Virus record (IMG/VR): IMGVR_UViG_3300044614_001923
Strand: one strand, 5' to 3'
DNA from: a virus
Lineage: Duplodnaviria; Caudoviricetes
Length of the DNA: 64,000 bases
Made by a program: the position numbers and the translations under genes. Under the pieces are notes generated by a model. The model searched no databases. It saw nothing but the letters and a program-made list of their open reading frames with translations, and had not been told where the DNA came from. Shown here in pieces: positions 19,142 through 54,031 of the stretch (positions are counted from its first letter, which is position 1; every line of letters starts with the position of its first letter).

Positions 19142-20694
19142 AATGGAGCATCAAGATTAATATTAGTTTTAATGAACTCAATTAATTTTTCATTCTTAGA
19201 AACTATTCCCAATCCAAATGTATGAGTAAAATTGACTTTTGGTAAGTCTAATTCCTCAAAGAATCTTTTTACCCCATATTCATTACCGTTAATATTTTCA
19301 ACCATAGTATCATGAAATAGAATAATACCATCATCGTCTAAGAATTTACTCCATGTCTCATAATCATTCTTTACTGATTCATATGCATGATCCCCGTCTA
19401 TATGGAGCAGATTAATCTTTTTATCCCAAGTCTTAGCAACATCATCAAAAGTACCTTTAATGAAGGTTACAGAGTCATCTAGACCAGTCTCACGCGCTTT
19501 CTGAGTGACAAATTCAAACAGTTGGTTAGAATCTCTTGCGCCCGCATATTGATCACCTTCGAAGGTATCAACTCCATATACTTTTTGTCCAACCTTAGGT
19601 GTTCCAAATACAAATGTAGAATATCCATGATCAACACCAAGATCGACCACAACCTCAGGTTTAATTGTAGATACCAACCACTTTGCAAAATTCTTGTGTC
19701 CTTTCCAGCAACTATGAATATCCTCATAGTTTTTTCTGCTCAACTCTTTGATTGCCTCACTTCTTGCTGAAGATTCTCTTAATTCTGGAATAAAAGCAGT
19801 TGAGAATACAGTAAGATCCAGATTTCCAATTTCTTTACTGAAACCAAAAAGATTTTGGAAAGATTCGATTGCAAACGGTTCCCCAAGCATCAAAGACTCA
19901 CTCATTGAATGAATAAGATAATTTGCAGATCTTTGAATATCTCCATTCTGGAAAAATATTTTACTACATTCAACAAACACTTTTACTCTAAAACTATTAA
20001 AATATGCTTGAGTGCAAGTTAAGAATTGCTGTCCATAATCTAAAGCTAGTTCATAATTTTTTACAGTTAGATGATGATTGAAAACAAACCAAATGTAATA
20101 CCAATTTGTAGGATTAGTCTTAAGTTCTCTCTCACAAATTGAAAGGTAAAAAAGTTCTTTATCTACACTTTTATTAATTAACTTTGTAATTTTCGTAGTG
20201 ACATCTACTACATTTTCTTTTGGAAAGTTTTCCGTTGCTACAAAAATTGGAGTTTCATGAACAGCATTAACCCACTTATAATTTTCTTTTCTATGAAAAC
20301 GAATGTGAACTTCATTTGATGGATAAATTTGTCCGTCTTTATCATCAAATCTAAGATGCTTAAATGCGCTGAATTGATCTTCAATCTGATCTAAACCATC
20401 TGCAAAGTAATCGTCAATATCTTCATTGAAATCTAAACTCAAGCACCAATCATTTGTTGCATATGAAAGTGCCTGATTTCTTGCTACTGAAAAATCAAAC
20501 TCATCTCTAGATTGTGGATGCTCATAAACAGTAATTCCAGCATCCCTCAGCAACTGAACTGTATTGTCAATACTACCAGTATCAACTACAACAACCTCAT
20601 CAAATTTTTCCGCATTCTTTAGAAACTTTTCAATATTCTTTTCTTCATTTTTTGCGATAGAATATAAACTTACTTTCATAGGTACTTCTCCCAA
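19138..20694 (-). CDS. GT2 glycosyltransferase + helical/TPR-like region + class I SAM methyltransferase
   Basis: IAKNEEKN, VVDTGSIDNT, FDFSVARN; C-terminal VDLGVDHGYS, LHIDGDHAYE, GIILFHD. Confidence 0.85.
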   Translation of the reverse strand: MGEVPMKVSLYSIAKNEEKNIEKFLKNAEKFDEVVVVDTGSIDNTVQLLRDAGITVYEHPQSRDEFDFSVARNQALSYATNDWCLSLDFNEDIDDYFADGLDQIEDQFSAFKHLRFDDKDGQIYPSNEVHIRFHRKENYKWVNAVHETPIFVATENFPKENVVDVTTKITKLINKSVDKELFYLSICERELKTNPTNWYYIWFVFNHHLTVKNYELALDYGQQFLTCTQAYFNSFRVKVFVECSKIFFQNGDIQRSANYLIHSMSESLMLGEPFAIESFQNLFGFSKEIGNLDLTVFSTAFIPELRESSARSEAIKELSRKNYEDIHSCWKGHKNFAKWLVSTIKPEVVVDLGVDHGYSTFVFGTPKVGQKVYGVDTFEGDQYAGARDSNQLFEFVTQKARETGLDDSVTFIKGTFDDVAKTWDKKINLLHIDGDHAYESVKNDYETWSKFLDDDGIILFHDTMVENINGNEYGVKRFFEELDLPKVNFTHTFGLGIVSKNEKLIEFIKTNINLDAPL

Positions 20695-21392
20695 TCAATA
20701 CAAGGTGATAGAAATTCTGAGTGACAATGTGTGGAATATCCAGGTATAGATGATGCCAAATATTTTCCTTTTTGACTTAATTCAAGAAATTTAATATGAT
20801 CATTGGATGGTTCAACATCCGTTGAGTATTTAACATGGATATCTAAGTCATCTTTTAAATTACCAAAGGTAGTAGCGAAGGTATTTGTAGTTGAAGGAAC
20901 AGGTCTCCAATGAGAATTTTCTGTGATTAAAACTCTGGACATTAGACTTGAATACATTCCACTGTATTTGTCCCCATGATCATACAATGTAATGTATTTC
21001 ACCGTGTCCTTTTCATTCACTTTAATATCAAATCCTTCAATTAAAACTTGAGTCCAATTATCTCTATGAACATAATCATCTTCTAGAAAGTAAATGATTG
21101 TATTATCATCAAAGTTTTGACTATCAACATATTCTAAGGTTTTTAGGAAACTTTTTGCTTCTCCACCTTCGTTAATTTTTACTAAACCTTCTTCATCTTT
21201 TAAAAATGTATCTTCAATTTTTCCATAATGTTCATCATATATGATGGTATAATTGATCAGTTCTGGATCAAGAGTTCTTTTAAAATTTTCAAATACTTTT
21301 TCTTTATCCCACCAAGATGGTCTAGATCTTGATGGTTGCTCTTGCAACTTAGAGTAAAAGCAATGACGTAAAAATACTTCAACCTTTTTCAT
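20676..21392 (-). CDS. putative GT-A fold glycosyltransferase
   Basis: IIYFLEDDYVH (ExDD/DxD-like); YITLYDHGDKY. Confidence 0.65.
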   Translation of the reverse strand: MKKVEVFLRHCFYSKLQEQPSRSRPSWWDKEKVFENFKRTLDPELINYTIIYDEHYGKIEDTFLKDEEGLVKINEGGEAKSFLKTLEYVDSQNFDDNTIIYFLEDDYVHRDNWTQVLIEGFDIKVNEKDTVKYITLYDHGDKYSGMYSSLMSRVLITENSHWRPVPSTTNTFATTFGNLKDDLDIHVKYSTDVEPSNDHIKFLELSQKGKYLASSIPGYSTHCHSEFLSPCIDWEKYL

Positions 21393-22075
21393 TTTGCCAT
21401 GTTCCCAAAAAATTCTTTTGCTGTTTGAATAGTTTTTTCTTCTTTAGATACTTTCATCACATACTTGTCTTTGAAACTTTCTTTTTCAAAGACTATCATT
21501 GAGTTGTAAAAAGATAATCCTGATAGGTTTTCTATTACTGGATTAAATGGTTCTTCCATGTATTCAATATTCATGTTATGAACAAAGTTACTAAAAACAG
21601 AAATTGAATTTGTATTAGATCTCAATCCTCCTTGAAATATATTAAAATAAGCGGTGTGAGTATCTTCTACAATATAACATCCACCATTATTCAGAGTTGG
21701 ATACAAAAAGAAAAAAGAATTTAGAACATCGGATTGAATGTGACTTCCATCATCAATGATAATATCAAAAGGACCATGCTCTTCGCATATTCTTTTTAGA
21801 AAAATCTCATCTGATTGGTCTCCAATCTCTACAGTAATTTGATCCTCAGCAAATTTAAATTCTTCATGAATATCAATTCCTAAAATTTCAGAGTCGGGTC
21901 CAAAATACTGTTTCCACATTTGCAGGGAACCACCACCTTGAACGCCAATTTCAAGTAATTTTATAGGTTTATTTCTATACTTAGATAAGTGCCTCTCATA
22001 TAAGTCGAAATAATGTAACCATTTATGAATTGGTCTATCATTATTTTGCTTAAAGATTTCAATTAATGATTTCAT
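21389..22075 (-). CDS. class I SAM-dependent (sugar O-)methyltransferase
   Basis: HKWLHYFDLYE, LLEIGVQGGGS, GIDI, DIIIDDGSH, YIVEDT. Confidence 0.85.
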   Translation of the reverse strand: MKSLIEIFKQNNDRPIHKWLHYFDLYERHLSKYRNKPIKLLEIGVQGGGSLQMWKQYFGPDSEILGIDIHEEFKFAEDQITVEIGDQSDEIFLKRICEEHGPFDIIIDDGSHIQSDVLNSFFFLYPTLNNGGCYIVEDTHTAYFNIFQGGLRSNTNSISVFSNFVHNMNIEYMEEPFNPVIENLSGLSFYNSMIVFEKESFKDKYVMKVSKEEKTIQTAKEFFGNMAK

Positions 22076-22863
22076 AGATTAATATTAAATTTGTCAAAGA
22101 GATCTGTATTTTCTTTTCCTATAACTTCTTCTGGTGGAAGATTAGTTCTACCAAGTTTGGAGCGGATTTTATGAAGATTTTCTAATCCCCAAGCAGCATC
22201 TTTTTCTTCTGCACATGTATTTAGAATGTTATTAAAGTCGTGGTCAAAGGATTCTATCTGCAAAAAATTATAAATCTTTTCTAATTCTTTCTGTGGATCG
22301 TTAGTTAGGTTATTATAATCAACCAAATGAATATTGCTACGAAAGTTACTCAGTCCAAATACTGTACTTTCATATGGGTCAGAAATATAATTTCTCCATA
22401 GACATTCAACTCTATTGTCTAGTGTAATTTCTTTTCCAATTGATCTTAGATAATTGTCAACAAAATTATCTTGTTGATTATTTTTTTTAATTAATGTAAT
22501 GTATGAAGCAATTACTTCACTAATTCTTCTGTTTGTGCAGATAATTTTTGGATCTTTTCCTAAGAATTTTTTAACTGAATTTACATTTCTAGGCCATGCT
22601 CTATGTTTATCAATCACATATTCTTTAGGTATATGGGAATAAAAATTATTAAGTATAGATGAATATGTATTATGAGTAATATTTATTTTATCATAAGTAT
22701 ATTGAATATCTAATCTAGAAAAGTTTTCATCAACTAAACAAAGTAAGTCTGATAATGGACTTGTTGGAGTTACATGAATATCTGGGTGCTGATTTAAAAT
22801 CGACCCAAGAAGTGTAGATCCTGATCTTGGAAGACCAGATAGAAATAACAAAGAATTTTTCAT
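22072..22863 (-). CDS. sulfotransferase
   Basis: 5'-PSB loop FLSGLPRSGSTLL; IDKHR; downstream R...S 3'-PB-like segment. Confidence 0.85.
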   Translation of the reverse strand: MKNSLLFLSGLPRSGSTLLGSILNQHPDIHVTPTSPLSDLLCLVDENFSRLDIQYTYDKINITHNTYSSILNNFYSHIPKEYVIDKHRAWPRNVNSVKKFLGKDPKIICTNRRISEVIASYITLIKKNNQQDNFVDNYLRSIGKEITLDNRVECLWRNYISDPYESTVFGLSNFRSNIHLVDYNNLTNDPQKELEKIYNFLQIESFDHDFNNILNTCAEEKDAAWGLENLHKIRSKLGRTNLPPEEVIGKENTDLFDKFNINL

Positions 22864-22866
22864 AAT

Positions 22867-24099
22867 TTATGGGTATAATACTGTTCCGTCATATTTGTTT
22901 GCTAGAGTCCATTGTGACATTGGACCAACTGATATCTTTCTCCAATCAGTATTTGTTGTCACTTGTGTTGGGAATGAAACTCTTTGAATTAAAGTATTGC
23001 CAATACCAACTTGACCGTTACTATTTAATCCCCATGCCCATAATGTGCCATCTGATTTCAAAGCAACGGTATGATATTGTCCACATGAAACATCTTTCCA
23101 ATTACCTGATCCATAATTATTATTAAAATCAGCTCCATATAATTGGAATGGTGATGTATAAATTGAGTTATTTGTTACGCCAACGCCTAACTGACCATCA
23201 CTGTTTATTCCCCATACCCATAAAGAACCATTATCTTTAATTGCAGCACTGTGAGATCTTCCCGCTGATGCTGTTCTCCAAACAAATCCTGGTTCAACTT
23301 CAGTTGGAATAGTTACAAAAAGGATTGATGGATTTTTTCCACATTGAGCTCCATCATTTACTCCCCATGCATATAATTTTCCATCATTTTTAATTGCTAA
23401 TGCGTGTCCGTAACCACAATCAACTGACTTCCAATCATTTCCACCAGCAAATGTGGTTACTGGAGTTGATCTAATAAGATCTGGTCCAGGAAATGTATAT
23501 GTTCCTATTCCAAGTCTTGCTCCATAATTATTTCCCCAAACCCACAAACTTCCGTCAGTTTTAACAGCTGCTGCAAAATGTCTTCCACAAGAAACTTGCT
23601 TCCAGTTATTTCCCCCAGCAAATGTTGTAACTGGAGTTGAACGTGTAACAGTGATTCCTATTCCTAATTGTCCAAACTGATTTTGTCCCCAAGTCCATAG
23701 GGAACCATCAGTTTTAATTGCAGCAACAAATGTTTCTGCTCCAGTAGAAAGACTTCTCCAAGTTTTATCTCCACTAATTACAGTTGGAGTTGTTGCTTGA
23801 ACAGGAACCCCATTTGTCCCTAATTGTCCATAACTATTGTTTCCCCAAACGAACATTTGTCCGTCAGCCGCTATTCCATATCCACTAAAACGACCATTGC
23901 ATATATCATTCCAATATTGTGCTCCAGATAACATAATAACTGGACTACTTCTGGTTATTAAATCATTAGTTCCCAATTGCGCGTTTACATTGAGTCCCCA
24001 GTTCCAAGCAGTTCCCTGCTGAAACAATCTTGCTGATACAAAGACATCATCAAATGCTACTTCTTGTCCGTTTTGTGTGAAATTAAATTTACCTGACAT
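22867..24099 (-). CDS. RCC1/BLIP-II-like repeat beta-propeller protein (paralogue 4)
   Basis: about seven repeats of H..AIK.DG.LW.WG.N..GQLG. Confidence 0.9.
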   Translation of the reverse strand: MSGKFNFTQNGQEVAFDDVFVSARLFQQGTAWNWGLNVNAQLGTNDLITRSSPVIMLSGAQYWNDICNGRFSGYGIAADGQMFVWGNNSYGQLGTNGVPVQATTPTVISGDKTWRSLSTGAETFVAAIKTDGSLWTWGQNQFGQLGIGITVTRSTPVTTFAGGNNWKQVSCGRHFAAAVKTDGSLWVWGNNYGARLGIGTYTFPGPDLIRSTPVTTFAGGNDWKSVDCGYGHALAIKNDGKLYAWGVNDGAQCGKNPSILFVTIPTEVEPGFVWRTASAGRSHSAAIKDNGSLWVWGINSDGQLGVGVTNNSIYTSPFQLYGADFNNNYGSGNWKDVSCGQYHTVALKSDGTLWAWGLNSNGQVGIGNTLIQRVSFPTQVTTNTDWRKISVGPMSQWTLANKYDGTVLYP

Positions 24100-24100
24100 T

Positions 24101-24472
24101 TTAGAGCTCTATCCAGTTATTTTCTTTCAAGTAAATGACTGGAGTATTCATTAAAGAACTCCAGATTTTAAACCAATCTAATGTATTAGTATTTATTTCC
24201 TGATTCTCTATAGGTAAAATTTTTAAGTATTGTTTTTCTTCTTTGTTTTCAACTGAAACTAAAAACTTACATCTATCAGGTCTCATTTCAATAGGTAACA
24301 CTTCTTGAGCCCAAGCACAAAAGTAATTCATGCAAACATTTGGTCTTGCTTTATGGACACTGCATCCAGACCCGCATAAAAACTTGCAGGATTTTCCATT
24401 GCCAAAATCATAACCATAAGCATTACCAATTAACCAAGTGCAACATGCTGTGCAATCTCCACATTCTCTCAT
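24101..24472 (-). CDS. YkgJ-like cysteine-cluster (Zn/Fe-S) protein
   Basis: CGDCTACC...C..L...C..H..RP..C..Y.C.W. Confidence 0.75.
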   Translation of the reverse strand: MRECGDCTACCTWLIGNAYGYDFGNGKSCKFLCGSGCSVHKARPNVCMNYFCAWAQEVLPIEMRPDRCKFLVSVENKEEKQYLKILPIENQEINTNTLDWFKIWSSLMNTPVIYLKENNWIEL

Positions 24473-25140
24473 AGCATGTATTCTTTCTCTGAAAAATAAT
24501 AAGTATCTAGATCATTTTCTATACAATAATTATCTTTCCACTTGTTCAATGATTTTGCCTTATGGTTTTTATTTGAACCTATCCAAAATTCACGATCAAG
24601 ACGATAACCACTTTCCAAATACTTATTATCTAGTGTATTAATATAAGATGCATTTGCCCACCAAAAGTTTCCTGGATAAAATCCTACGCCTTCATTTGAA
24701 GTTCTAGATCCATCAGACCATACAGTATCTCCCAATGGTTCCCATGTTTGTCCAGCACAATCATATCCTTCTTCTAGTGCTGTGACACATTCTTTCCAAC
24801 GGTCAATGACAAAATATTCCATCATAAGTCTCCACGAATCGTGATGGAGAGTTTGTTTACTTCCTCCCTTTAAATGAAAATAAAGAACTTTATAATCTCC
24901 ATTTTCCTTACAAAAATCTCTTAAAGAGCACAGAGTATCTGTCTCTTCTTTTTGATTCTCATTATAAACAACTCTCGCATTATCTGGAATATTGAATAAT
25001 TCATTTGAACCATTAACTCCAATATGAATTAGGTCTGCTGCTTTAACAAGACCAGATGCACATAAACGATGGATTTGTTGTTGGTAAATAAATGCACTTA
25101 TTCCATTCTGAAATACGTGATAGAAGATTGCAATTTTCAT
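24469..25140 (-). CDS. putative glycosyltransferase-like protein
   Basis: IAIFYH, KVLYFHLKG, FYPGNFWWA, EFWIG; context of GT genes. Confidence 0.55.
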   Translation of the reverse strand: MKIAIFYHVFQNGISAFIYQQQIHRLCASGLVKAADLIHIGVNGSNELFNIPDNARVVYNENQKEETDTLCSLRDFCKENGDYKVLYFHLKGGSKQTLHHDSWRLMMEYFVIDRWKECVTALEEGYDCAGQTWEPLGDTVWSDGSRTSNEGVGFYPGNFWWANASYINTLDNKYLESGYRLDREFWIGSNKNHKAKSLNKWKDNYCIENDLDTYYFSEKEYML

Positions 25141-25946
25141 AGTGAATATGAATCTCCATCCATTCCTTTAAGAACATCTAGACCCAAAGTTGGAATGTTT
25201 AAAATTTTATTCCTATCTAAGAAATGATAAAGAGAATGTTCTATATCAATTCCTGCAGTATATTGAATTGCTCTTTCCATATAACCAAAACTTTTTTCTA
25301 AAGCATCAACAACATCACCAAAAAGGAACCGATCAAATGACCATAATCCAGTTACAACCATTCCTTTTGCTGCGTAAAGATCTAAGTATATATTTTCAGT
25401 ATCTTCAAATCTCTTACTATCATAAGAATAAAGTTTGGCGACATAATAATTTTGAAGGAAACTGGTCTTATAATCTTCAATGTTGAAATAATTATTCAGA
25501 GTGTAACGTCCGCTGATTTTAAAGACACGAGTTACATCTGAGAAAATATTATGAGTCTTCATGTATTCAAACACGTTTAAGAGTGCTCTACACTCAAGCA
25601 TTGACTTGCCATAAACAAAGCGGTCTGGTTGCTTGTTTAGATTATCATAAAGAAGTTGGATTCCTGGCTCTCCATAAAATTCTAAAAATAGATCAGACTC
25701 TTCAATAAATCTTTCTCTATACTTTTCACTAATCTTTATTGGAGATACTTCATAAACACAAATGTAAGCATCTGGAACTTTTTCTTTTACTGATCTGATT
25801 GTTTCTAAAGTTTGTTCAAAACGTTGCTCAGCAGTAAAATAACTAAAATCATTTGATTTAAAATGCTCAACGGCAGAACCAACTAAAAATAAAAATTTAT
25901 AGTCCATAGAATGATGAAAGATAATTTGGTGATGTTGAATGATCAT
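25137..25946 (-). CDS. hypothetical protein of the glycan-modification island (likely start MDYKFL)
   Basis: EQRFEQTLETI, RVFKISGRY motifs; coupled to neighbours. Confidence 0.65.
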   Translation of the reverse strand: MIIQHHQIIFHHSMDYKFLFLVGSAVEHFKSNDFSYFTAEQRFEQTLETIRSVKEKVPDAYICVYEVSPIKISEKYRERFIEESDLFLEFYGEPGIQLLYDNLNKQPDRFVYGKSMLECRALLNVFEYMKTHNIFSDVTRVFKISGRYTLNNYFNIEDYKTSFLQNYYVAKLYSYDSKRFEDTENIYLDLYAAKGMVVTGLWSFDRFLFGDVVDALEKSFGYMERAIQYTAGIDIEHSLYHFLDRNKILNIPTLGLDVLKGMDGDSYSL

Positions 25947-26583
25947 TTAGAAAATCTTCAACTCTGTTTGACCAGAGTTCTGGGATTTCTTCTTTAAACT
26001 TACTAATTCTAAAATAATGCCATGCTCCTGGATACCAAGTCCCAGTTCCATACATTCCGTATCCTGATAGTTTATAACCTTCTCCCTCATCCCATCCGTA
26101 AGGATACATGAGTTGATAGTTCATTCCTATTTGATTTGCTCTCAAAGTTAGTATTTGTGCGGTATCAATTTGATTTTCATTCTGAATAAACCAAGAAAGA
26201 CTTGGCGATCCTAGTGATTGCCACGCAGTTTTATTCACAAATAAACATGAAGCCGCAGCATAAATGTGATTTCTCATATTAGTGTGAGAAATATTTTGAG
26301 CATGACCAACAAAAGATTTATTGATTTTTGCCCAGTTATATGCTTTTTCTAAGACTTCCTTTTTATATGGAAGGCAATCAATATCTAAAAAACAGGCAGT
26401 ATCTTTTTCTTCTTCTAAAATAGAAGTCATGAAGTTGCCATGTGCAGTATAAACTGCATTGTAATCATCATAAAACTTTTCTTTGTGATAGACTACTTCT
26501 AAGTCAAGTTTATCACAACATTTTTTATGATCTTCTAAGATTTGATTTGGAATATTTTCTGTACAAAATGTATGAAATCTCAA
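25897..26583 (-). CDS. putative glycosyltransferase/nucleotide-diphospho-sugar transferase-like protein
   Basis: ACFLDIDCLP DxD motif. Confidence 0.55.
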   Translation of the reverse strand: MRFHTFCTENIPNQILEDHKKCCDKLDLEVVYHKEKFYDDYNAVYTAHGNFMTSILEEEKDTACFLDIDCLPYKKEVLEKAYNWAKINKSFVGHAQNISHTNMRNHIYAAASCLFVNKTAWQSLGSPSLSWFIQNENQIDTAQILTLRANQIGMNYQLMYPYGWDEGEGYKLSGYGMYGTGTWYPGAWHYFRISKFKEEIPELWSNRVEDFLNDHSTSPNYLSSFYGL

Positions 26584-27932
26584 GTTAACCCTCTATTCAT
26601 TAAAAATTCACTCAACTTATTTATTGGACCTTTCCAATCTCTAGGTTTTACTTGCTTAAATATATGAACATTGTCTCCATACCAAGCAGACTTTCCTGAT
26701 TCATGTATCCAAACATAATATTCCATAATAGGAACAAATACACAAACTTCTTTTCCTAAAGATGCTGCAACATGAGCAGTAAAACTACATGATGTGATTA
26801 TAAGATCTAGGTTATTGATGATTGAGAAAGTATCCGCATATTCTCTATCGGGAATAGATAAAGATTGTTTTATTTCTGGATATTTGTCTGCGTCTTTATT
26901 GTCAGCATGTGTTTGTAATGAATAGAGTGAAATGTTTTTGTTCTTAAGAACACTCATATAATCATCAAGACTTACGCTTCTAAACTGATTCTGTTCATAT
27001 CCAGAACTTGATGCCCAAAATAATCCTACTTTAAAACCTTCGTCTTTATGCATCCATTTCCACTTCTCATCAATTTCTGCAATTGGTTTCAGATAAGGAT
27101 GCTTTCCAAGTTCTTCAACATTCAAGTCTAGATGATAAGGCAGTGCTAGACCATAAACCCAACAAGAATCTTTAGGAAATTGTGGTTTATCCCAACAACA
27201 GACTGCATCATATCCATTGTAATTGAATAATTCTACAAGTTCCCTTCGGGTAGAATTCCAAATTGGTTTCATTCCCAATTCTTTAAGATGTTTCATGAAG
27301 CGAATATGAATCACTTCATCACCAGCTCCGCATTGGTTATCAATAATAATAGTTCTTCCTGGAGTAACAGTTCCGTCCCACTTTTCATATTCGGGTAGTT
27401 TTTGATTCTTATATGCTTCAATTTCACCAGCTCTTAAAAAATGCTTTAATGCAGTTTTTATATCATTCTTTCTAAAGTAATGTCCAGATAGATTGTGATA
27501 TGCTTTTCTTTCAATCTCTTCTGGCAGTTTCTTTTGAAGAAGATTGAATAATAGTTTTTCAGATTTATCTTTCTGTCCTAATGCCGAGTATGCAAAAGTT
27601 TCTTCCAATAATAATTCTGAATCCTGTGGATTTATTTTCTTACAAAACTCTATTTGAGTAAGTGCTTTTTCTGGATAATTTGACTGATTATACGCATTAA
27701 TTAAATTTTTTGAAAGGATATATCTTTCTTGTTTTGTCTTTGCTTGTTGAAGTGCCTTTTCCCCATATTCAATTGCTTTGGGAAAGTTTTTGACTTCAAA
27801 AAATATCTTTGCAACATCATCATATTGTTGGACTGTTTGCGCTCTTTTCCCAAAGGCATCCAACAATTGATAAGTTAGTTCTTTTTCACTAAACGAATGT
27901 AATGTTTTTGCTACCAACTCAAGTGGATTCAT
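26580..27932 (-). CDS. TPR-repeat + GT9-like (GT-B) glycosyltransferase
   Basis: N-terminal TPR-like helices; WDG, QCGAGDEVIHIRF, KVGLFWA, YSLQ, DLIITSCS..AHVAASLGK. Confidence 0.85.
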   Translation of the reverse strand: MNPLELVAKTLHSFSEKELTYQLLDAFGKRAQTVQQYDDVAKIFFEVKNFPKAIEYGEKALQQAKTKQERYILSKNLINAYNQSNYPEKALTQIEFCKKINPQDSELLLEETFAYSALGQKDKSEKLLFNLLQKKLPEEIERKAYHNLSGHYFRKNDIKTALKHFLRAGEIEAYKNQKLPEYEKWDGTVTPGRTIIIDNQCGAGDEVIHIRFMKHLKELGMKPIWNSTRRELVELFNYNGYDAVCCWDKPQFPKDSCWVYGLALPYHLDLNVEELGKHPYLKPIAEIDEKWKWMHKDEGFKVGLFWASSSGYEQNQFRSVSLDDYMSVLKNKNISLYSLQTHADNKDADKYPEIKQSLSIPDREYADTFSIINNLDLIITSCSFTAHVAASLGKEVCVFVPIMEYYVWIHESGKSAWYGDNVHIFKQVKPRDWKGPINKLSEFLMNRGLT

Positions 27933-27952: not shown

Positions 27953-27960
27953 TATTTATT
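27953..27960 (-). promoter_or_regulatory. late promoter AATAAATA
   Basis: NATAAATA 21 nt upstream of the GT9 start, at the head of a gap-free run to 18782. Confidence 0.65.
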
Positions 27961-27981
27961 TAATCCTCGTAGGATCTGATT
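27960..27981 (+). repeat. 22-bp direct repeat (1 mismatch), copy 1; copy 2 at 29169-29190
   Basis: ttaatcctcgtaggatc(t/c)gatt at the 3' ends of two unrelated genes, both ending SYED*. Confidence 0.9.
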
Positions 27982-29165
27982 GCAAAAACAGTTGCATTGT
28001 CATTAAAACTCACAGATTTCCAATTATTTCCACCTATGAATGTTGTGACTGGCGTTAATCTTAAAGTTGTATTATTAATTCCAAGTTGTCCAAAATTATT
28101 AAATCCCCAAATCCATAACGTCCCATCTGTTTTAATCGCTGCAGTGCTATTCCCTCCGCAAGAAATCTGTTTCCAATTGTTTCCTCCAGCAAATGTTGTG
28201 ACTGGAGTTAATGCGTTAGATACAGTATTAGTACCAAGTTGACCACTACCATTCAATCCCCAACCCCATAAAGTTCCATCAGTTTTAATTGCTGTGGTAT
28301 GGTAATACCCACAGCTAACCTGTCTCCAATTATTTCCCCCACCAAATGTTGTTATTGGAGTTGAACGGTTGGGTTGAGGGGAAGGTTGTCCAAGTTGTCC
28401 AATAGCATTACTACCCCATAACCATAAAGTTCCATCAGTTTTAACCGCTGCAGTATGAAGAGATCCGCAAGAAACTTGTTTCCAATCATTACCTCCAGCA
28501 AATGTAGTTACTGGTGTAGATCTATTTGCTGCAGTATTATTTGCTAATTGTCCATTAGTATTTTGACCCCATAACCATAAAGATCCATCAGTTTTTACTG
28601 CTGCAGTATGATTAAATCCACAACTCACTTGTTTCCAATTATTACCCCCCGCAAATGTAGTAACTGGTGTAGAAACAACAATATTGGAATTTATTCCAAG
28701 TTTTCCATAAGAGTTGTTTCCCCATGACCATAGAGATCCATCCGTTTTAATTGCTGCATTATGAAAAGGACCGCAACTTATTTGTTTCCAATTTGTTCCT
28801 CCAGAAAATGTAGTGATTGGAGTTCTAGAATTGCCTATATTATTTGTTCCAAGACTAAGATAAAGAGAATTATTTCCACCCCAAATCCATAAAGTACCAT
28901 CATTTTTTATTGCAGTTGTATGGTGTCTTCCGCAAGCAACTTGTTTCCAGTTGGCACCACCTGCAAATGTTGTGATTGGAGTAGATTTGGATTCTATATC
29001 ATTTGTCCCTAATTGCCCATCAACACCAAATCCCCATCCCCATAACTCTGGGGTAATATATCGATTCGCAATGTTTAAATAAACACTATTAAAGTATTCT
29101 TTCTCTAGGAGTTTAGATCCTACATCAACTCCATCTGATCCTATGAAATTAGTTGTTGAGATCAT
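27960..29165 (-). CDS. RCC1/BLIP-II-like repeat beta-propeller protein (paralogue 3)
   Basis: seven ~52-aa repeats TPVTTFAGGNNWKQVSCG..HTAAIKTDGTLW.WG.N..GQLG. Confidence 0.92.
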   Translation of the reverse strand: MISTTNFIGSDGVDVGSKLLEKEYFNSVYLNIANRYITPELWGWGFGVDGQLGTNDIESKSTPITTFAGGANWKQVACGRHHTTAIKNDGTLWIWGGNNSLYLSLGTNNIGNSRTPITTFSGGTNWKQISCGPFHNAAIKTDGSLWSWGNNSYGKLGINSNIVVSTPVTTFAGGNNWKQVSCGFNHTAAVKTDGSLWLWGQNTNGQLANNTAANRSTPVTTFAGGNDWKQVSCGSLHTAAVKTDGTLWLWGSNAIGQLGQPSPQPNRSTPITTFGGGNNWRQVSCGYYHTTAIKTDGTLWGWGLNGSGQLGTNTVSNALTPVTTFAGGNNWKQISCGGNSTAAIKTDGTLWIWGFNNFGQLGINNTTLRLTPVTTFIGGNNWKSVSFNDNATVFAIRSYED

Positions 29166-29168
29166 TTC

Positions 29169-29822
29169 TTAATCCTCGTAGGATCCGATTACTACTGGAG
29201 GTCTAATGACAACTTCATAAACCTCATCTATTGTTTGACATGCATCAATCTCTTGGTTTTTTGCAAGTTCCCAATCAAATGCTTCTTGTACTTTTAGATC
29301 AATTTGCTGTAAAATATATTCAATATCAGTTTTTGTAATCTCCACCCAAGTCTGATTATCAAATTTAAAATTGTAAGGACCAACACCACTCATTGCTTTT
29401 GATGCTAATGAGAGACGATTATCTCTGCTGGTTGATATCTTTACTTCCGTTCCGTTTATAGTTAGATTAATCTCAGTATTTTCTTTCTCTTTTCTGACTG
29501 GAGCAATTTCTACTTTTCTTTCCGCTTTTACTTGATCAATAGACTTATCTCTTGTACCATAAAGAAATACCACTTCATTTTGGAAAATTCCTACTGATGG
29601 TCCCGTATGCTCATGATATTTGGCATTATAAAACGGAGAGTACTCATTTTTTGCTGGAACAATTCTTACAGTGTCCGTAATATTAAAAGGAACTCTTGCC
29701 TCGTCAATTGAAGATACACGCTGATCCAATTCTAGATCATCTTCTAAAACAGAATTAATCATTCTGTAATTAAATGGAATTGGTCCTAACAAGACCATTG
29801 AACCGTCTACTAGAGCGTACAT
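29169..29822 (-). CDS. DUF4376-like tail-associated protein
   Basis: C-terminal R..KE...I..NG....T....R......NFKF...WV.......I....QEAFDWE...EI. Confidence 0.7.
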   Translation of the reverse strand: MYALVDGSMVLLGPIPFNYRMINSVLEDDLELDQRVSSIDEARVPFNITDTVRIVPAKNEYSPFYNAKYHEHTGPSVGIFQNEVVFLYGTRDKSIDQVKAERKVEIAPVRKEKENTEINLTINGTEVKISTSRDNRLSLASKAMSGVGPYNFKFDNQTWVEITKTDIEYILQQIDLKVQEAFDWELAKNQEIDACQTIDEVYEVVIRPPVVIGSYED

Positions 29823-29839
29823 ATACTTTTTTTAATTAT

Positions 29840-31036
29840 TTAGTATTCTGGTCCTGATGTTACTACCATAGTATGTCCTTGTCCAGTAGATACTTGTTTC
29901 CAATTATTTCCGCCAGCAAATGTTGTAACTGGAGTTGAACGGTTTACAGTATTACCATTTCCCAATTGTCCAGTATTATTTTGACCCCATAACCATAATG
30001 TTCCGTCAGTTTTGATTGCTGCAGAAAAATTAGTTCCACAACTTACTTGTTTCCAGTTATTTCCTCCAGAAAATGTTGTTACAGGGGTTAAAATACCTCC
30101 AGGATTATTGTCATTAATGCCCAGCATTCCACTAAAATTACTTCCCCAAGCCCATAAAGTTCCATCTGTTTTTATTGCTGCCATATGCAAAATGCCACAT
30201 GAAACTTGTTTCCAGTTGGTATTTCCAGCAAAAGTTGTTACTGGCGTAGATCTATTATTAAATTGATTATTTCCAAGTATTCCAGCAGTTCCATTTCCCC
30301 ATGCCCATAAAGTGCCGTCTGTTTTAATTGCTGCTGTAAATTCAGATCCACATGCAACTTGTTTCCAATTAGTTCCTGCAGCTGATGTTTCTACTGGAGA
30401 AAATCTATCCGTTGTATCATTGACTCCTAGTTGAGCATAAGAATTACGTCCCCACCCCCATAAAGTTCCATCAGTTTTAACTGCTGCAGTATGATTAAAT
30501 CCTCCACTAATTTGTTTCCAATTATTACCTCCAGTAAATGTTGTAACTGGAGTTGAACGATCTACAGAATTGTTAGTTCCCAACTGACCAAATTGATTTC
30601 TCCCCCAAGTCCATAGGGTCCCATCAGTTTTGATTGCTGTAGTAAAAAGTCTTCCACAAGAAACTTGTTTCCAGTTAGTTCCTCCAGCAAATGTTGTGAC
30701 TGGCGTGGATCTATTGGCAGTTCCTGCACCTGTTCCTAAATTATTTCCCAATTGTCCATAAGAATTTAATCCCCAAGTCCATAAAGTTCCATCAGTTTTG
30801 ATTGCTGCACTGTGACTTTCTCCACAAGAAATCTGTTTCCAATTATTTCCACCAGGAAGCGTTGTGATTGGTGTTGATCTGCTGGATGAAATTAAATTTT
30901 GCCCAAGCTGTCCAGAAGTATTGTCTCCCCAAACCCAAAGTTGATCACCAATCCATTGGTCTACTAACCAGGATTCGGTAATGTAAGTTTGGTTTTCTAA
31001 GTCTCCTTCTGGAGTTCTAAAGTTGTTTATTGGCAT
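29840..31036 (-). CDS. RCC1/BLIP-II-like repeat beta-propeller protein (paralogue 2)
   Basis: seven repeats; N-terminus nearly identical to paralogue 1. Confidence 0.92.
   Translation of the reverse strand: MPINNFRTPEGDLENQTYITESWLVDQWIGDQLWVWGDNTSGQLGQNLISSSRSTPITTLPGGNNWKQISCGESHSAAIKTDGTLWTWGLNSYGQLGNNLGTGAGTANRSTPVTTFAGGTNWKQVSCGRLFTTAIKTDGTLWTWGRNQFGQLGTNNSVDRSTPVTTFTGGNNWKQISGGFNHTAAVKTDGTLWGWGRNSYAQLGVNDTTDRFSPVETSAAGTNWKQVACGSEFTAAIKTDGTLWAWGNGTAGILGNNQFNNRSTPVTTFAGNTNWKQVSCGILHMAAIKTDGTLWAWGSNFSGMLGINDNNPGGILTPVTTFSGGNNWKQVSCGTNFSAAIKTDGTLWLWGQNNTGQLGNGNTVNRSTPVTTFAGGNNWKQVSTGQGHTMVVTSGPEY
30935..31027 (+). repeat. 93-bp identical direct repeat, copy 1; copy 2 at 32160-32252
   Basis: base-by-base comparison of the 5' ends of RCC1 paralogues 1 and 2. 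Confidence 0.92.
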
Positions 31037-31037
31037 T

Positions 31038-32261
31038 TTAGTAATCTGGTCCTGATGTTACTGCCATAGCAAATTCATATCCACATGCAACTTGTCTCCA
31101 ATTATTTCCTCCAGCAAATGTAGTGACTGGAGTGGGTCTATATGAAGTTGGATTGATAGTGCCTAATTGTGAATAATAATCTCCACCCCAAGACCACAAA
31201 GTTCCATCGGTTTTTATTGCAGACTTAAAAGAATATCCACATGCAACTTGCTTCCAATTATTTCCTCCAGCAAATGTTGTGACTGGAGTAGATCTACCTA
31301 TTATTGTATTGTCACCTATAGATCCAGCTCGATTTACAGTATTATCTCCCCAAGTCCATAGGGTTCCATTAGTTTTAATTGCTGCAGTTTGGTCTCTACT
31401 TACAGCAACTTGTTTCCAATCATTAGTATTTCCAAATACTTGTACTGGTATAGATCTATAAAGATTGTCATTTGTTCCCAATTCTCCTGAAATATTTGTT
31501 CCCCAAGTCCATAAAGTTCCATCAGTTTTGATTGCTGCTACATGATATGCTCCAGTATTTCCAGCAACTTGTTTCCAATTAGTTCCTCCAGCAAATGTAG
31601 TTATTGGAGTAAGTCTTTGAGTTACTGTATTGTCTCCAAGTTGCCCAAAATCTCCAGAACCCCAAGTCCATAAAGTTCCATCAGTTTTGATTGCTGCTGT
31701 ATGATCTGAAGAACATACAACTTGTTTCCAATTATTTCCTCCAGCAAATGTTGTTACTGGAGTAGAACGAGCTGAATTTGGAGCCGCTGGAAATAAATTA
31801 ATTCCCAGTTGTCCAACACTATTACTTCCCCACATCCATAATGTTCCGTCAGTTTTGATTGCTGCAGTATGATAATTGCCACAAGAAACTTGTTTCCAGT
31901 TGGTTCCTCCAGCAAATGTTGTTACTGGAGTAGAACGTGCTGCATTTGGGTTTACTCCACTTAAGTTAATTCCAAGTTGCCCATTACTATTATCTCCCCA
32001 CAACCATAAAGTTCCATCAGTTTTAATTGCAGCAGAATGCCCCAATCCACCATCAACTTGTTTCCAATTAGTTCCTCCAGCGAGAGTAGTAACTGGAGTT
32101 GATTTTGTTACGACAATATTATTAATTCCAAGTTGTCCATATAAATTATATCCCCAAGTCCAAAGTTGATCACCAATCCATTGGTCTACTAACCAGGATT
32201 CGGTAATGTAAGTTTGGTTTTCTAAGTCTCCTTCTGGAGTTCTAAAGTTGTTCGTGGGCAT
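31038..32261 (-). CDS. RCC1/BLIP-II-like repeat beta-propeller protein (paralogue 1)
   Basis: seven repeats; start overlaps the tail-fibre stop by 20 nt. Confidence 0.92.
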   Translation of the reverse strand: MPTNNFRTPEGDLENQTYITESWLVDQWIGDQLWTWGYNLYGQLGINNIVVTKSTPVTTLAGGTNWKQVDGGLGHSAAIKTDGTLWLWGDNSNGQLGINLSGVNPNAARSTPVTTFAGGTNWKQVSCGNYHTAAIKTDGTLWMWGSNSVGQLGINLFPAAPNSARSTPVTTFAGGNNWKQVVCSSDHTAAIKTDGTLWTWGSGDFGQLGDNTVTQRLTPITTFAGGTNWKQVAGNTGAYHVAAIKTDGTLWTWGTNISGELGTNDNLYRSIPVQVFGNTNDWKQVAVSRDQTAAIKTNGTLWTWGDNTVNRAGSIGDNTIIGRSTPVTTFAGGNNWKQVACGYSFKSAIKTDGTLWSWGGDYYSQLGTINPTSYRPTPVTTFAGGNNWRQVACGYEFAMAVTSGPDY

Positions 32262-34257
32262 CTAGACGCGCCTCCAGATCATCAATTCTCTTCTGCTGAT
32301 CTTTAATCGCCTCTATCAGAACACCAATCAGCATATCATAGCAAACTGATTTCATTCCTTCTGGGTCTGTCTTAACTGCTTCTGGTAGAACCTTTTCTAC
32401 ATCTTGTGCAATTACACCAACCGAAGGATCTCCACCATCTTTCCAATTAAATCTTACACCTTTAACTTCATTTAAGATCACAAATGGATCATCAATTCTT
32501 TCAATATTCGCTTTGAGTCTTTCATCGGAGGTTGAAGTAAATGTATTTGCATACATTATACCTGAAGTATCAAGTCTTGCTGTAATAGGTTGCTCAGTTC
32601 CTAATGTTCCAATACCAGTTCTGAATAAAAGTTCTCCTGGATAAGTTGATGACGCTCCACCAACAAAATCAATTTGACCACCTCTTTGTGAAGAGGAAGT
32701 CATTCCTCCAGCAAAGATTGATAATCTTCCTCCATTACTTCCCGAAAAAATTGTCGTTGGTATATCAGTATTATTAGAAGTTACTAAAAGATGCCCAACA
32801 CCACCAGAATTACTTACTCCTCCAATAAAATTAACTCTTGCAACGTTCGCTAAAGTAATTCCCAATCCAACATTAACATATCCACCAAAGTAAGCGTTAC
32901 TATTTCCAAAATCTACTTGTGTAGAACCATTAATAATGGTGGTATTAAATCCTACATTTCCATTAAAGTAAGAATTCCCTTGAACATGAAACTTTTCAAC
33001 TGGATTTGTGGTTCCTATACCCAGATTGCCAGAAACATAAGCACCACCACCAACTTGAAGATATTGATTTGCAGTTCCAGTTCCCTGTGTAGTTCCAATA
33101 CCAACAAATACTGTTGTAGCATTTGTTAAGTTTCTGGTTTGAAGATAAATTGGTCTGGACTGTCCTGTTTTTGCAACATTAATATAACCAGCATCAATAT
33201 TATCATCATATCCCATCCACATAGTTCTTCCAGTATTTCCAGAAGAAAGCGCAAATGCGTGTGCTCCAGATTCACCAGCAGTAGAAGGATTTGTTCCTGA
33301 TTGTGTTACAAAAAGTCTAGATGTTGGATTTGTGGTTCCTATACCAAGATTATTACTTACATAAGCACCACCAGTAACTTGAAGTGTTTGTGATGCGGTT
33401 CCAGTTGAAGTTCCAGAACCAATCAAAATTGGTCCATTTGTAAATGTTGAAATTCCTGCAGATCTTAATAGAGTAACATCTACAGTTCCGTTTACTGCAG
33501 TTGAAACTCCAGATGTAGTTGAATATGTTGTTTGTGTAGCAAATCCAGCAGTTACTGCGTAAGTTGCTGATGTTGCTGATGTTGCTGATGTAGAAAGACC
33601 TGCAACAGTCGCATAACTGGATGTTGTAGAGAATCCAGTTGATGCTGCATAAGAAACACTACCAACTAATGTTGTTGCTGTTAAAATACCAGTAACAATT
33701 GCACCACCAGCAGTTGTTTGAAATTTCTTTACATTATCATGATAAAGTTCTACTGAACCATTTCCATTAAAAATTGCTGAGTTTTCTCCGCTAGGTGTTA
33801 TAATATTAACGCTAGTATTACTGATTAAATATAAATTTGCAGCAGCATTTGTAATATAACTATTATTATTTGCTCCGTTATGGAAAATTTGAAGATCATT
33901 TCCATCACCAAAGTATAAAGTATCATTATCACCAAAATAAGCGTGATTTTGGAAGGTTGAAACGCCAACTACCCTTAAATTTTGTGCAGTGGCAATACCA
34001 GTGACATTTACATTAACTGATGTGATTATTCCAGTAGCATTTAAATTCCGTAATGTATTAGTATTTGAAGAAACAATAGATTGTGCTGTTAAAATACCAG
34101 TAACATTAACATTACCAACAACTTCAACTTTTGCATTTGGAATAGTAGTTCCAATACCAATATTTTGTCCCTCTTGACTTTTAATATTGATATGTTTACT
34201 GGTATCTAATACCTCAATAAGATTTGCTATTTGCGATAACTCTCTATTATTAGTCAT
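32242..34257 (-). CDS. tail fibre with C-terminal peptidase S74-type intramolecular chaperone
   Basis: GIGTT fibre motifs; TSDERLKANI...GVRFNWK...GVIAQDVEKVLPEAV...SVCYD.L...LIEAIK coiled coil. Confidence 0.9.
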   Translation of the reverse strand: MTNNRELSQIANLIEVLDTSKHINIKSQEGQNIGIGTTIPNAKVEVVGNVNVTGILTAQSIVSSNTNTLRNLNATGIITSVNVNVTGIATAQNLRVVGVSTFQNHAYFGDNDTLYFGDGNDLQIFHNGANNNSYITNAAANLYLISNTSVNIITPSGENSAIFNGNGSVELYHDNVKKFQTTAGGAIVTGILTATTLVGSVSYAASTGFSTTSSYATVAGLSTSATSATSATYAVTAGFATQTTYSTTSGVSTAVNGTVDVTLLRSAGISTFTNGPILIGSGTSTGTASQTLQVTGGAYVSNNLGIGTTNPTSRLFVTQSGTNPSTAGESGAHAFALSSGNTGRTMWMGYDDNIDAGYINVAKTGQSRPIYLQTRNLTNATTVFVGIGTTQGTGTANQYLQVGGGAYVSGNLGIGTTNPVEKFHVQGNSYFNGNVGFNTTIINGSTQVDFGNSNAYFGGYVNVGLGITLANVARVNFIGGVSNSGGVGHLLVTSNNTDIPTTIFSGSNGGRLSIFAGGMTSSSQRGGQIDFVGGASSTYPGELLFRTGIGTLGTEQPITARLDTSGIMYANTFTSTSDERLKANIERIDDPFVILNEVKGVRFNWKDGGDPSVGVIAQDVEKVLPEAVKTDPEGMKSVCYDMLIGVLIEAIKDQQKRIDDLEARLDAHEQL

Positions 34258-34281: not shown

Positions 34282-34289
34282 TATTTATT
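34282..34289 (-). promoter_or_regulatory. late promoter AATAAATA
   Basis: intergenic NATAAATA upstream of 34257. Confidence 0.65.
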
Positions 34290-34299
34290 AGATGGTAAA

Positions 34300-35355
34300 T
34301 TAACTTAAACGTGCAGTGACAAATGAGGTTACTTGATCTGTCAACTTATTTGTTGTTGCTCCTAAAGATAAAGCATTTGCATCTGGATTGATTGCGATAG
34401 GTGGATCATTTACATCACCAAGATAGAAATTTAAATCTTCATGAGCATATATTTCTGCAGTTGCAACATCAGTACTATTCAAATATAGAGCAAATGTAGA
34501 ATTAGATTTAATTTCAGATGGAAGTGCATCGTAAAATGTTCTTGCGCGTTCAAATCTATCTGTTGCTCCTCTAGTGACAACCAAAAAAGGACAAAATGCC
34601 GAAGAAGCACTTCTAAAGGGAGATGCTGCTTGATAAAAAATCAAACAATTTTGTCTTCCTGTTGTTGAATTTGGATAATCTGTAGTATATGTTGTTCCTC
34701 CAATTGGTATTGGTGGAATTGCAAAAGCGTTTGCATATACAATTTGAGATTTAATATTAGATCCACCTACATCAGTGTTAGTATCCCGAATAATTGTTTC
34801 AATATCATATCCATCAGTATCTAAAGAAATGCATCCTTTAATAGCAGATCTCAAAGCATTTCTCTGTGCAGTTGTAGTATATGCACTATTAATATAAGTT
34901 GTATTTGTGCATAATAGTGAAACTAAATGTGCTCCAGCACTATGCCCAGCAGCAACAATTTTGTTTGGATTTCCTCCAAAACGATTAACATTTTCAAAAG
35001 TCCACCTCAAAGCAGTAACCACATCATTTATATGATTTGGATGACGTACTCTATTTGTCGCCCAAGTTCCAATATTTGTAGATGGTATTGGGCTTAATCT
35101 ATAATTTACCGTTACAAAAATATAACCCAAAGAATTGAAAAATCTCGCTTTAGAATATGTTGATGATCCTTTATCACCAACTGTCCATGCTCCACCATGA
35201 ACCCAGAAAATGACAGGTCTATTTCCATAAATTCCTTCATTTAGATGATATACATCTAGATTTAATAAATTTTGAGTAACTCCAGAAATAGTATTATGAG
35301 ATATATTTAATATCGGAGAATTATCCTCAGATAAAAACAATCCTTGAATTGACAT
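34300..35355 (-). CDS. alpha/beta-hydrolase, HSL-family esterase/lipase
   Basis: LDVY, PVIFWVHGGAW, VNYRL, GHSAG nucleophile elbow, late His (YAHED). Confidence 0.88.
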   Translation of the reverse strand: MSIQGLFLSEDNSPILNISHNTISGVTQNLLNLDVYHLNEGIYGNRPVIFWVHGGAWTVGDKGSSTYSKARFFNSLGYIFVTVNYRLSPIPSTNIGTWATNRVRHPNHINDVVTALRWTFENVNRFGGNPNKIVAAGHSAGAHLVSLLCTNTTYINSAYTTTAQRNALRSAIKGCISLDTDGYDIETIIRDTNTDVGGSNIKSQIVYANAFAIPPIPIGGTTYTTDYPNSTTGRQNCLIFYQAASPFRSASSAFCPFLVVTRGATDRFERARTFYDALPSEIKSNSTFALYLNSTDVATAEIYAHEDLNFYLGDVNDPPIAINPDANALSLGATTNKLTDQVTSFVTARLS

Positions 35356-40720: not shown

Positions 40721-41095
40721 TTATGCAGTTGGAGGTTCTGGAAAAACTACTTCTTCAGGTGAAGAAAAAGTAGTTGTAATATCTCTCAATTCTTGACGAT
40801 ATGTTTTCCATGATGTTGGAATGTTAGTTCCACATTCTTTTGCTTTTAATACAACCCAGTCGCAATTTGTAAGAAGTTGATCTCTCTCTTTTCTAACTTC
40901 TGCCCATGCAAGATCTAAATCTTCAACTGGAGCAACAAATTCGCCATTAATATATGACCACCCCATTCCAACACCCGCAACTGTTGATGTTTCAACATCG
41001 ACCCAGTTTGGATAATTCTTTGCATGTGATGGTTCAGCAGCTGTCATATTGACAACTACTTCGTTTTCTACAATTGCATAAATTTTGATTGCCAT
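40721..41095 (-). CDS. tail fibre assembly chaperone-like protein
   Basis: W.EVRKERDQLL...DW......W..YRQELRDIT...FPEPP. Confidence 0.8.
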   Translation of the reverse strand: MAIKIYAIVENEVVVNMTAAEPSHAKNYPNWVDVETSTVAGVGMGWSYINGEFVAPVEDLDLAWAEVRKERDQLLTNCDWVVLKAKECGTNIPTSWKTYRQELRDITTTFSSPEEVVFPEPPTA

Positions 41096-53925: not shown

Positions 53926-53945
53926 TTACTTCTAATGTTAATGTA

Positions 53946-54027
53946 TGTCGATGAAAGGACTTGAACCTTCAAGGATTGCTCCACTGGAACCTAAACCCAG
54001 CGCGTATACCAATTCCGCCACATCGAC
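53946..54027 (-). tRNA. trnL: tRNA-Leu(TAG)
   Basis: acceptor GTCGATG/CATCGAC, GGAATTGGT D-loop, CTGGG-TTTAGGT-TCCAG, long variable arm, GTTCAAGTC; no encoded CCA. Confidence 0.92.
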
Positions 54028-54031
54028 AGAG

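Follow-up and report, generated by a model that had tools for sequence, protein, structure and literature searches.

What does an array of repeat-built propellers do directly behind a phage tail-fibre gene, and how do its loops vary while its frame remains constant? The question is raised by a locus of the Caudoviricetes record IMGVR_UViG_3300044614_001923. The window, by which we mean the whole analysed stretch of 64,000 nucleotides (nt), is the minus strand of this 64.8-kb IMG/VR viral record, which is estimated to be ~26% complete; all genes discussed here lie on the minus strand of the window. Four of them encode RCC1-like propellers: gene A (31038..32261, 407 amino acids [aa]), gene B (29840..31036, 398 aa, a tandem paralogue of A), gene C (27960..29165, 401 aa), and gene D (22867..24099, 410 aa). 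A, B, and C are clustered, and D is 3.9 kb away. Among isolates, Synechococcus phage S-SRM01 (Kyanoviridae, Serangoonvirus), a T4-like freshwater cyanophage grown on Synechococcus sp. KCZYC6, is the nearest, and the sequencing runs containing the stretch are lake-water and freshwater metagenomes. With moderate confidence, we propose that the propellers are interchangeable virion host-binding modules, diversified by homologous recombination and selection.

Blade scaffold and hypervariable positions

For all four proteins, matches to the Pfam families RCC1, RCC1_2, and WD40_RLD greatly exceed the gathering scores (E = 1e-47 to 1e-113), with 202–262 bits for RCC1 (PF00415, cut-off 21.7) and 253–378 bits for WD40_RLD (PF25390, cut-off 150). 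Each gene consists of exactly seven blades of 49–60 residues, which gives 28 blades over four open reading frames and agrees with the original prediction, made from the sequence of the locus, of propeller paralogues with about 28 blades at 27960–32261 and 22867. Alignment of the 28 blades confirmed the near-constant frame that had been proposed, W-x-WG-x-N-xx-GQLG-x-N-x...xxx-RSTPVTTFAGG(N/T)NWKQVSCG-xx-HTAAIKTDGTL, with near-constant columns at W1, W3, G4, N6, G-Q-L-G, RSTPVTTFAGG(N/T)NWKQV, C-G, H, and AAIKTDGTL. Variation had been expected at CG[xx]H, at N[xx]G, and in the loop after GQLG, and the column entropy indeed peaks there at ~2.9–3.5 bits; additional peaks are found at W[x]W and G[x]N, and peaks of ~2.9–3.5 bits also follow GQLG[x]N[x] and occupy the three residues preceding R-S-T-P. 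Insertions are confined to the loop after GQLG. About 13 positions per blade are hypervariable. Gene D is clearly more divergent (42–45% identity), and its blades are less regular than those of A–C.

The consensus of 72 homologues shows the same pattern of scaffold and loops, as do 481 unique blades of 51 residues taken from 131 proteins; in this larger set, the entropy at positions 5, 7, 8, 18, 39, and 40 is above 3 bits. Of 8,000 candidates scored, at least 7,985 are related at E ≤ 1e-20, which makes the family very large. Variable loops with a conserved core are generic in repeat proteins, and they could arise in redundant decoration or structural proteins whose loops are unconstrained, by neutral drift on a rigid repeat scaffold together with ordinary phage mosaicism. 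We regard this explanation as unlikely, since free exposed loops are expected to be rich in Lys and Glu, whereas the core variable positions of the 481 blades hold 0.8% Lys and 1.8% Glu, with 18% Asn, 15% Ser, 11% Tyr, and 6% Phe (Tyr plus Phe, 17%), and are also rich in Gly, Asp, and Arg. Judged from sequence, this composition is that expected of a binding site and not of a free surface, and may be called paratope-like.

Comparison of positionally equivalent blades from different genomes (the window, S-SRM01, and three IMG/VR relatives) revealed that identity at the 13 variable columns is 0.16–0.18, against 0.179 expected from column composition, while the framework columns of equivalent blades in related phages are 0.77–0.86 identical. 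Identity at chance level would also be expected from drift to saturation. Whole-protein identities among the propellers are ~55–65% regardless of their slot in the locus, and the third propeller of S-SRM01 is 71% identical to its own paralogues and only 42% to its positional counterpart, D.

Overall structure and the face of the variable loops

The AlphaFold2 model of A, calculated with a 72-sequence alignment, has a predicted local distance difference test (pLDDT) score of 82.7 and a predicted template modelling (pTM) score of 0.84. It contains 28 strands, arranged as seven blades of four strands each, plus a closing N-terminal strand; residues 1–21 are predicted to be disordered and are followed by a short helix at residues 22–28. 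Secondary structure assignment with DSSP gave the strand order LWxWG (strand C), RSTPVT (strand D), WKQVxC (strand A), and HTAAIK (strand B). The variable columns CG-xx-H form the A–B loop, and G-x-N-xx-GQLG-x-N-x... forms the C–D loop, while the B–C turn KTDGT and the D–A loop FAGGxNW are almost constant. Successive loops of a beta-meander are found at opposite ends of the sheet in turn, and the A–B and C–D loops would thus be on one propeller face, with the B–C turn and the D–A loop on the other. The variable residues of the modelled propeller would share one face, as deduced from strand topology and established propeller geometry.

A Foldseek search with the model of A returned HERC2 RLD2, UVR8, RPGR, and RCC1 at E = 1e-31 to 1e-33 and template modelling (TM) scores of 0.75–0.90. 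BLIP-II was a distant match (rank 47, TMq 0.54). The locus had been assigned an RCC1/BLIP-II fold with the loops on one binding face; the RCC1-like fold and, by topology, the common face of the A–B and C–D loops were retained, while the four strands per blade and the low rank of BLIP-II place the proteins with the RCC1/HERC2/UVR8 type.

Database labels in GenBank and PHROG, such as 'regulator of chromosome condensation' and 'DNA condensation protein', would make the propellers DNA-condensation or chromatin regulators. This reading was rejected as extremely improbable: the inherited family name is its sole support, that name was taken over from a eukaryotic Ran exchange factor, RCC1, and the context is not DNA-related, the locus being in a fibre module. 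To our knowledge, Ran is absent from bacteria. If the propellers are virion adhesins, a widespread misannotation as 'regulator of chromosome condensation' (DNA metabolism in PHROGs) would be corrected.

Fibre context, leaders, and putative late transcription

The propeller cluster lies, as predicted, right after a tail-fibre gene (32242..34257). Its product of 671 aa matches PHROG tail-fibre families (E down to 3e-38) and carries a C-terminal intramolecular chaperone domain (Pfam Peptidase_S74 at residues 577–629), and the end of the fibre gene overlaps the start of gene A by 20 nt. Between B and C lies a gene for a DUF4376 protein (29169..29822, 217 aa; Pfam DUF4376, E = 1e-6), whose matches to tail-fibre PHROGs are weak (phrog_10508 'tail fiber protein', E = 1e-5); in all relatives examined, synteny keeps it between propeller genes with the type-1 and type-2 leaders described below. 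The gene order of S-SRM01 equals that of the window: distal fibre, RCC1, small hypothetical protein, RCC1, tetratricopeptide repeat (TPR) protein, several small genes, RCC1, sulfotransferase, and glycosyltransferase.

The window has 12 sites of the T4-type late-promoter-like core ATAAATA, where 28 would be expected on both strands; all 12 are on the coding strand, and those near structural genes are mostly in gaps just upstream of a gene start. As a side observation, the motif appears to be avoided in the window except at likely late promoters. One core precedes the fibre gene (34282..34288), another directly follows the stop codon of gene C (27953..27959) and would start the next unit (TPR protein through gene D to the sulfotransferase), and none is present between 34282 and 27959. 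From this bracketing we infer that the fibre gene, A, B, the DUF4376 gene, and C form a single late transcription unit. As a marker, the complete T4 late-promoter consensus TATAAATA was discarded, since it has only two sites in the window (11450 and 42964) and only the shorter core is informative.

Each propeller starts with one of three N-terminal leader classes that are kept across the family: type 1 (...EGDLE...WLxDQW/Y) in A and B, type 2 (...ITPELW) in C, and type 3 (...FDDVFV) in D. Each class marks a fixed slot in the locus across related phages. The type-1 leader of A (codons 1–34, 32160..32261) is near-identical in DNA to that of B (30935–31036), with an identity of 0.94–1.00 and an exact match of 93 nt, after which the identity falls abruptly to ~0.57–0.75. 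The two tandem copies of the relative L010 have another leader variant in common, which indicates that leaders are homogenised within a genome. A probable role of the leaders is to attach the propeller to a conserved partner, and they would also act as homology arms.

The 3' ends may likewise be conserved boxes and possible recombination junctions, as suggested by their sequences. The DUF4376 gene (29169–29195) and gene C (27960–27985) end in the same C-terminal SYED and in nearly the same last ~21 bases (ATC.GATCCTACGAGGATTAA), and A and B both terminate in TSGP(D/E)Y. The 3' box of the DUF4376 gene also provides the GAGGA Shine-Dalgarno sequence for gene C.

Evidence for a proposed place in the virion

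Fusions in relatives connect the propeller with fibre domains. In an IMG/VR relative (L012, 9278–11116), a protein of 613 aa fuses Gly_rich_2 with RCC1 and is again followed by a DUF4376 gene; Gly_rich_2 also ends a fibre-like protein of the window (41132–42925). According to the structure database BFVD, Pseudomonas phage Littlefix has the same fold in its 'Tail fiber protein', and phage PollyC has it in a protein whose N-terminal domain is of the T7 tail-fibre type. A further IMG/VR relative (L014, 2–4495) encodes two RCC1 proteins of 715 and 782 aa, whose N-terminal 330–400 residues match no family. In the coliphage phAPEC6, mass spectrometry detected 6 of 11 RCC1-like proteins (gp003, 005, 007, 009, 549, and 551) in virions (Wagemans et al. 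2020, PMC7247149, Table 1).

The propellers might instead be late intracellular binders that are not virion parts, that is, BLIP-II-like inhibitors or decoys against variable host proteins (such as defence or envelope enzymes), or lectin-like helpers of transferases or of fibre assembly. We consider this a real though minor possibility. Such a role would suit single domains of ~400 aa without an attachment domain, and the location of gene D, whose neighbours match Sulfotransfer_1, Methyltransf_24 (weakly), and a glycosyltransferase PHROG; a hypervariable binding face would serve any arms race and not adsorption alone, and BLIP-II has the same general fold. The overlap of gene A with the fibre gene in a common promoter-bounded block speaks against it, as do the fusions to fibre domains, the RCC1-like proteins in phAPEC6 virions, and the conserved slot-specific leaders, which suggest docking to a conserved phage partner. 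On the basis of context, the composition of the variable positions, fusions, and the phAPEC6 analogy, a virion-borne accessory adhesin appears to be the best reading.

Several points weigh against an adhesin. The bare propellers lack a recognisable fibre-attachment domain, gene D is among transferase-like genes and not beside the fibre, and the phAPEC6 proteins are only ~25% identical to those of the window. The leader may be a mere structural cap, and late transcription is deduced from the motif alone. RCC1 does not appear in the S-SRM01 paper, nor does a virion proteome, and literature searches for RCC1 in cyanophages or receptor-binding proteins gave mostly strain numbers beginning with RCC or unrelated papers. 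The sources of the loop changes described next were not found either, and repeated selected point mutation may have produced them.

Exchange of the gene A propeller and probable editing of its loops

Two NCBI metagenome contigs, L016 and L017, come from a phage related to that of the window. Compared with L016, most neighbouring non-propeller proteins of the window are 71–91% identical and the DUF4376 protein 64%, while the other propellers are only 50–63% identical. Gene A departs from this pattern: sliding identity revealed that codons 21–400 (31062..32201) are 97–100% identical in DNA to L016/L017, with flanks of 57–83% on both sides, and that the junctions fall within the conserved leader and among the final codons. 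By this comparison, the 1.1-kb propeller body of A is a cassette recently exchanged between phage lineages.

The differences that remain between the alleles are unevenly placed. Thirteen of the 16 non-synonymous codons are at variable or insert positions (23% expected, P = 1.3e-6), and the changed codons mostly differ at two or three bases. Seven of the 10 synonymous changes are within three codons of a non-synonymous one, whereas random placement gave 1.26 on average and in 20,000 trials never reached seven. Codons 186–400 carry a single difference in 645 bases. Such clusters of multi-base change are better explained by templated replacement of short stretches than by independent point mutations. 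They also argue against neutral drift, since near-identical alleles change by two or three bases at loop codons next to 645 bases with one change, and since most neighbouring genes evolve more slowly than the propellers. Some patches are similar to the adjacent blade: between alleles, blades 2 and 3 of gene A show partial matches, with 3 of 42 and 5 of 48 positions mismatched. No exact donors were found for the patches, two patch sequences having no exact match in IMG/VR, and the patch mechanism is therefore supported and not shown.

The number of genes and blades also differs among relatives, with three propeller genes in S-SRM01 (gp335, gp337, and gp344, one of them six-bladed; its DUF4376 protein is gp336), four in the window, and five in L016. 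The six-bladed protein, S-SRM01 gp335 (L001, 4665–5699), is the counterpart of A/B and has 344 aa and an intact type-1 leader; its sequence suggests an in-register loss of one blade.

DNA similarity between blades

The frame had been described as near-constant often at the DNA level, and the array as an antibody-like repertoire that actively shuffles its blades. At the DNA level, the constancy is modest. Blade-to-blade base identity averages 0.60–0.65 with a maximum of 0.79 (blades 2 and 3 of gene A), and codon identity at identical residues is 0.60–0.63 against 0.54 expected from codon usage, which indicates that most of the DNA similarity stems from protein conservation. Long exact matches between blades are nevertheless in excess of a null in which the proteins were kept and synonymous codons redrawn. 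Matches of at least 30 nt number 5 in the window (0.61 expected, longest 39 nt), 21 in S-SRM01 (0.8 expected, longest 46 nt), 12 in L010 (0.46 expected, longest 73 nt), and 8 in the relative L011 (0.46 expected, longest 60 nt, between two genes). This excess over the null indicates that occasional blade-level conversion is real in the phage group and weak in the window.

A programmed high-frequency diversity generator, in which the blades form a cassette pool reshuffled in populations like lamprey variable lymphocyte receptor (VLR) genes or the repeats of fungal HNWD genes, would explain the exact matches, the partial match of blades 2 and 3 across alleles, the patchy loop-codon differences, and the variable number of blades and genes. 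We judge it very unlikely. The window blades are only ~65% alike, and synonymous sites between them are near saturation. A freshwater run of 2016 and lake-water runs of 2020, 2022, and 2024 all contain pieces without any difference from the window, and no exact donors of the patches were found. No match to the reverse transcriptase family PF00078 was found in the complete S-SRM01 genome, in the 64.8-kb record of the window, or in three related fragments, although fragments cannot exclude one, and no recombinase family matched among the genes scanned near the locus. The exact protein A was found on eight contigs, one of which, from another sample, has neighbouring genes of equal lengths.

The active blade shuffle is thus not borne out, and the clearest units of exchange are the whole propeller and the patch of 10–40 nt instead of the blade. 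Diversification by homologous recombination was upheld, through whole-propeller exchange, short patches at loop codons, and the excess of exact inter-blade matches; the expected lack of a reverse transcriptase was also confirmed within the sequences searched. Two further interpretations were dismissed. Contigs of lake metagenomes show many short 'joints' on the locus and variant unitigs at loop codons that could be taken for blade swaps; their sides span 21–39 nt, and they probably belong to paralogues or to other phages with the common frame. This comparison used contigs only, hence rare variants are invisible to it. A diversity-generating retroelement (DGR) was rejected, as no reverse transcriptase was found in the complete S-SRM01 genome or in the fragments; the allele differences involve all four bases and are not suggestive of adenine-specific mutagenesis, and no formal search for a pair of template and variable repeats was made.

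Proposed mechanism and significance

In the proposed mechanism, the four genes encode small, single-domain, RCC1-like seven-bladed propellers that would serve as swappable virion host-binding modules. The 6–13 hypervariable residues of each blade would sum to 40–90 on one face, and this face would recognise a ligand, probably a cell-surface glycan or protein of a freshwater picocyanobacterium. Co-infecting phages would replace whole propeller bodies, the exchange itself being visible in gene A; patches of 10–40 nt would rewrite loop codons, a step that the statistics favour and for which donors were not found; genes and blades would be gained and lost, as observed among the relatives; and occasional conversion would pass sequence from blade to blade, as observed in the relatives. 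All of these changes would proceed by ordinary homologous recombination, followed by selection.

A more specific version of this proposal, which we put forward tentatively and consider rather doubtful, is a natural 'consensus-designed' binding scaffold with 6–13 programmable positions per blade (a paratope of 40–90 residues), which phages would rewrite by templated conversion of short patches, with paralogous blades as donors, and by exchange of whole propellers at the conserved leaders, no reverse transcriptase being involved. If true, phages would possess a counterpart of lamprey VLR genes or HNWD repeats, and receptor binding could be re-targeted naturally by a route other than DGRs. If the propellers are virion adhesins, they would supplement the fibres of T4-like freshwater cyanophages with another, modular level of host recognition that has a clearly delimited variable surface, and would aid the prediction of host range from sequence for abundant, little-studied lake phages. 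The exchange of gene A offers a clean natural example of conserved leaders as recombination arms, with binding modules swapped between phages that are otherwise ~75% identical. The scaffold could also interest protein engineers as a highly regular seven-bladed repeat binder, in which the hypervariable positions are defined and of which thousands of natural variants exist.

Neighbouring genes

Gene D belongs to a run of transferase-like genes (20676–27932) that includes a protein with weak TPR matches, a Cys-rich protein of 123 aa, a sulfotransferase, a methyltransferase-like protein, and a glycosyltransferase–methyltransferase fusion. A 2OG-Fe(II) oxygenase gene follows the TPR gene in L016 and S-SRM01 and is absent from the window. 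Between fibre-like genes lies an alpha/beta-hydrolase of 351 aa (34300–35355; COesterase, BD-FAE, and Abhydrolase_3 matches), which might serve the adsorption apparatus as an esterase (deacetylase) that modifies the receptor. The Gly_rich_2 fibre-like protein is directly followed by a gene of 124 aa (40721–41095) whose L017 equivalent has Pfam Phage_tail_APC (tail assembly chaperone), which makes the two a fibre-plus-chaperone pair. Genes for tRNA-Leu(TAG) and tRNA-Thr(TGT) are side by side at 53945–54103, just downstream of a fibre gene of 1794 aa. For the DUF4376 protein, the AlphaFold2 model (pLDDT 91) gave no Foldseek match in the Protein Data Bank (PDB) at E ≤ 0.001, and a VIA-align wide search gave generic helical matches only (Z < 7).

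Comparison with known systems

The window propellers have, like HERC2, UVR8, RPGR, and RCC1 (PDB 7q40, 4dnw, 4jhn, and 1a12), seven blades of four strands in the same repeat register. These proteins differ in their heterogeneous blades and are 22–28% identical to those of the window, and nothing ties the phage proteins to Ran, ubiquitin, or UV-B signalling. BLIP-II binds its partner through loops on one face, and its blades are compact, with ~40 residues and three strands each. It is likewise a seven-bladed propeller (PDB 3qi0), but its chain has only 268 residues, whereas the model of A has four strands per blade. Targets of DGRs, such as Mtd of Bordetella phage BPP-1, are also phage receptor-binding surfaces with massive variation on a fixed scaffold; in the window, no reverse transcriptase was found.

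Recombination at conserved motifs of the gp38 adhesin reportedly swaps specificity, a result credited to Tetart et al. in 1998. The gp38 adhesins of T-even phages resemble the propellers as small adhesin-type genes beside the distal fibre gene, whose conserved glycine-rich motifs flank hypervariable segments (Trojet et al. 2011, PMC3157838). They have an unrelated fold, a single copy at the fibre tip, and proven receptor binding. The propeller proteins gave no gp38-type or Gly-rich match in Pfam or PHROG; Gly_rich_2 is on the separate protein at 41132–42925. In Podospora anserina, the WD40 repeats of the HNWD genes (het-d/het-e) undergo concerted evolution with constant exchange of repeat units, according to Paoletti et al. 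(2007, PMC1805685). As described there, they have in common with the window propeller repeats with a conserved frame and few variable positions on an interaction surface, exchange within and between paralogous loci, and a variable repeat number. In the fungal repeats, these few positions are under selection. They belong to another fold family, and their biology is allorecognition; concerted evolution keeps them alike in DNA, whereas the window blades are ~65% alike and their exchange is occasional. By analogy, the phage propellers would work most like gp38 adhesins and fungal HNWD repeats.

The nearest phage precedent is the RCC1-like array of the Rak2-like jumbo coliphages (phAPEC6, 121Q, and PBECO4; Wagemans et al. 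2020, PMC7247149), which also have several single-domain propellers of ~40 kDa per phage with common N-terminal leaders. The similarity of the proteins is weak (~25% identity, E = 2e-6). The window belongs to a T4-like freshwater cyanophage with another host, in whose group three to five copies are found directly behind the tail fibre; it has three slot-specific leaders where the phAPEC6 type has one tag, and its blades follow a much more regular scaffold in which the hypervariable positions are defined. Relative to these systems, what is new here is the quantified hypervariability of a single, topology-deduced face throughout a family of great size, the leaders that mark each slot, and a clear case of whole-propeller exchange, with probable patch-wise editing, between phage lineages.

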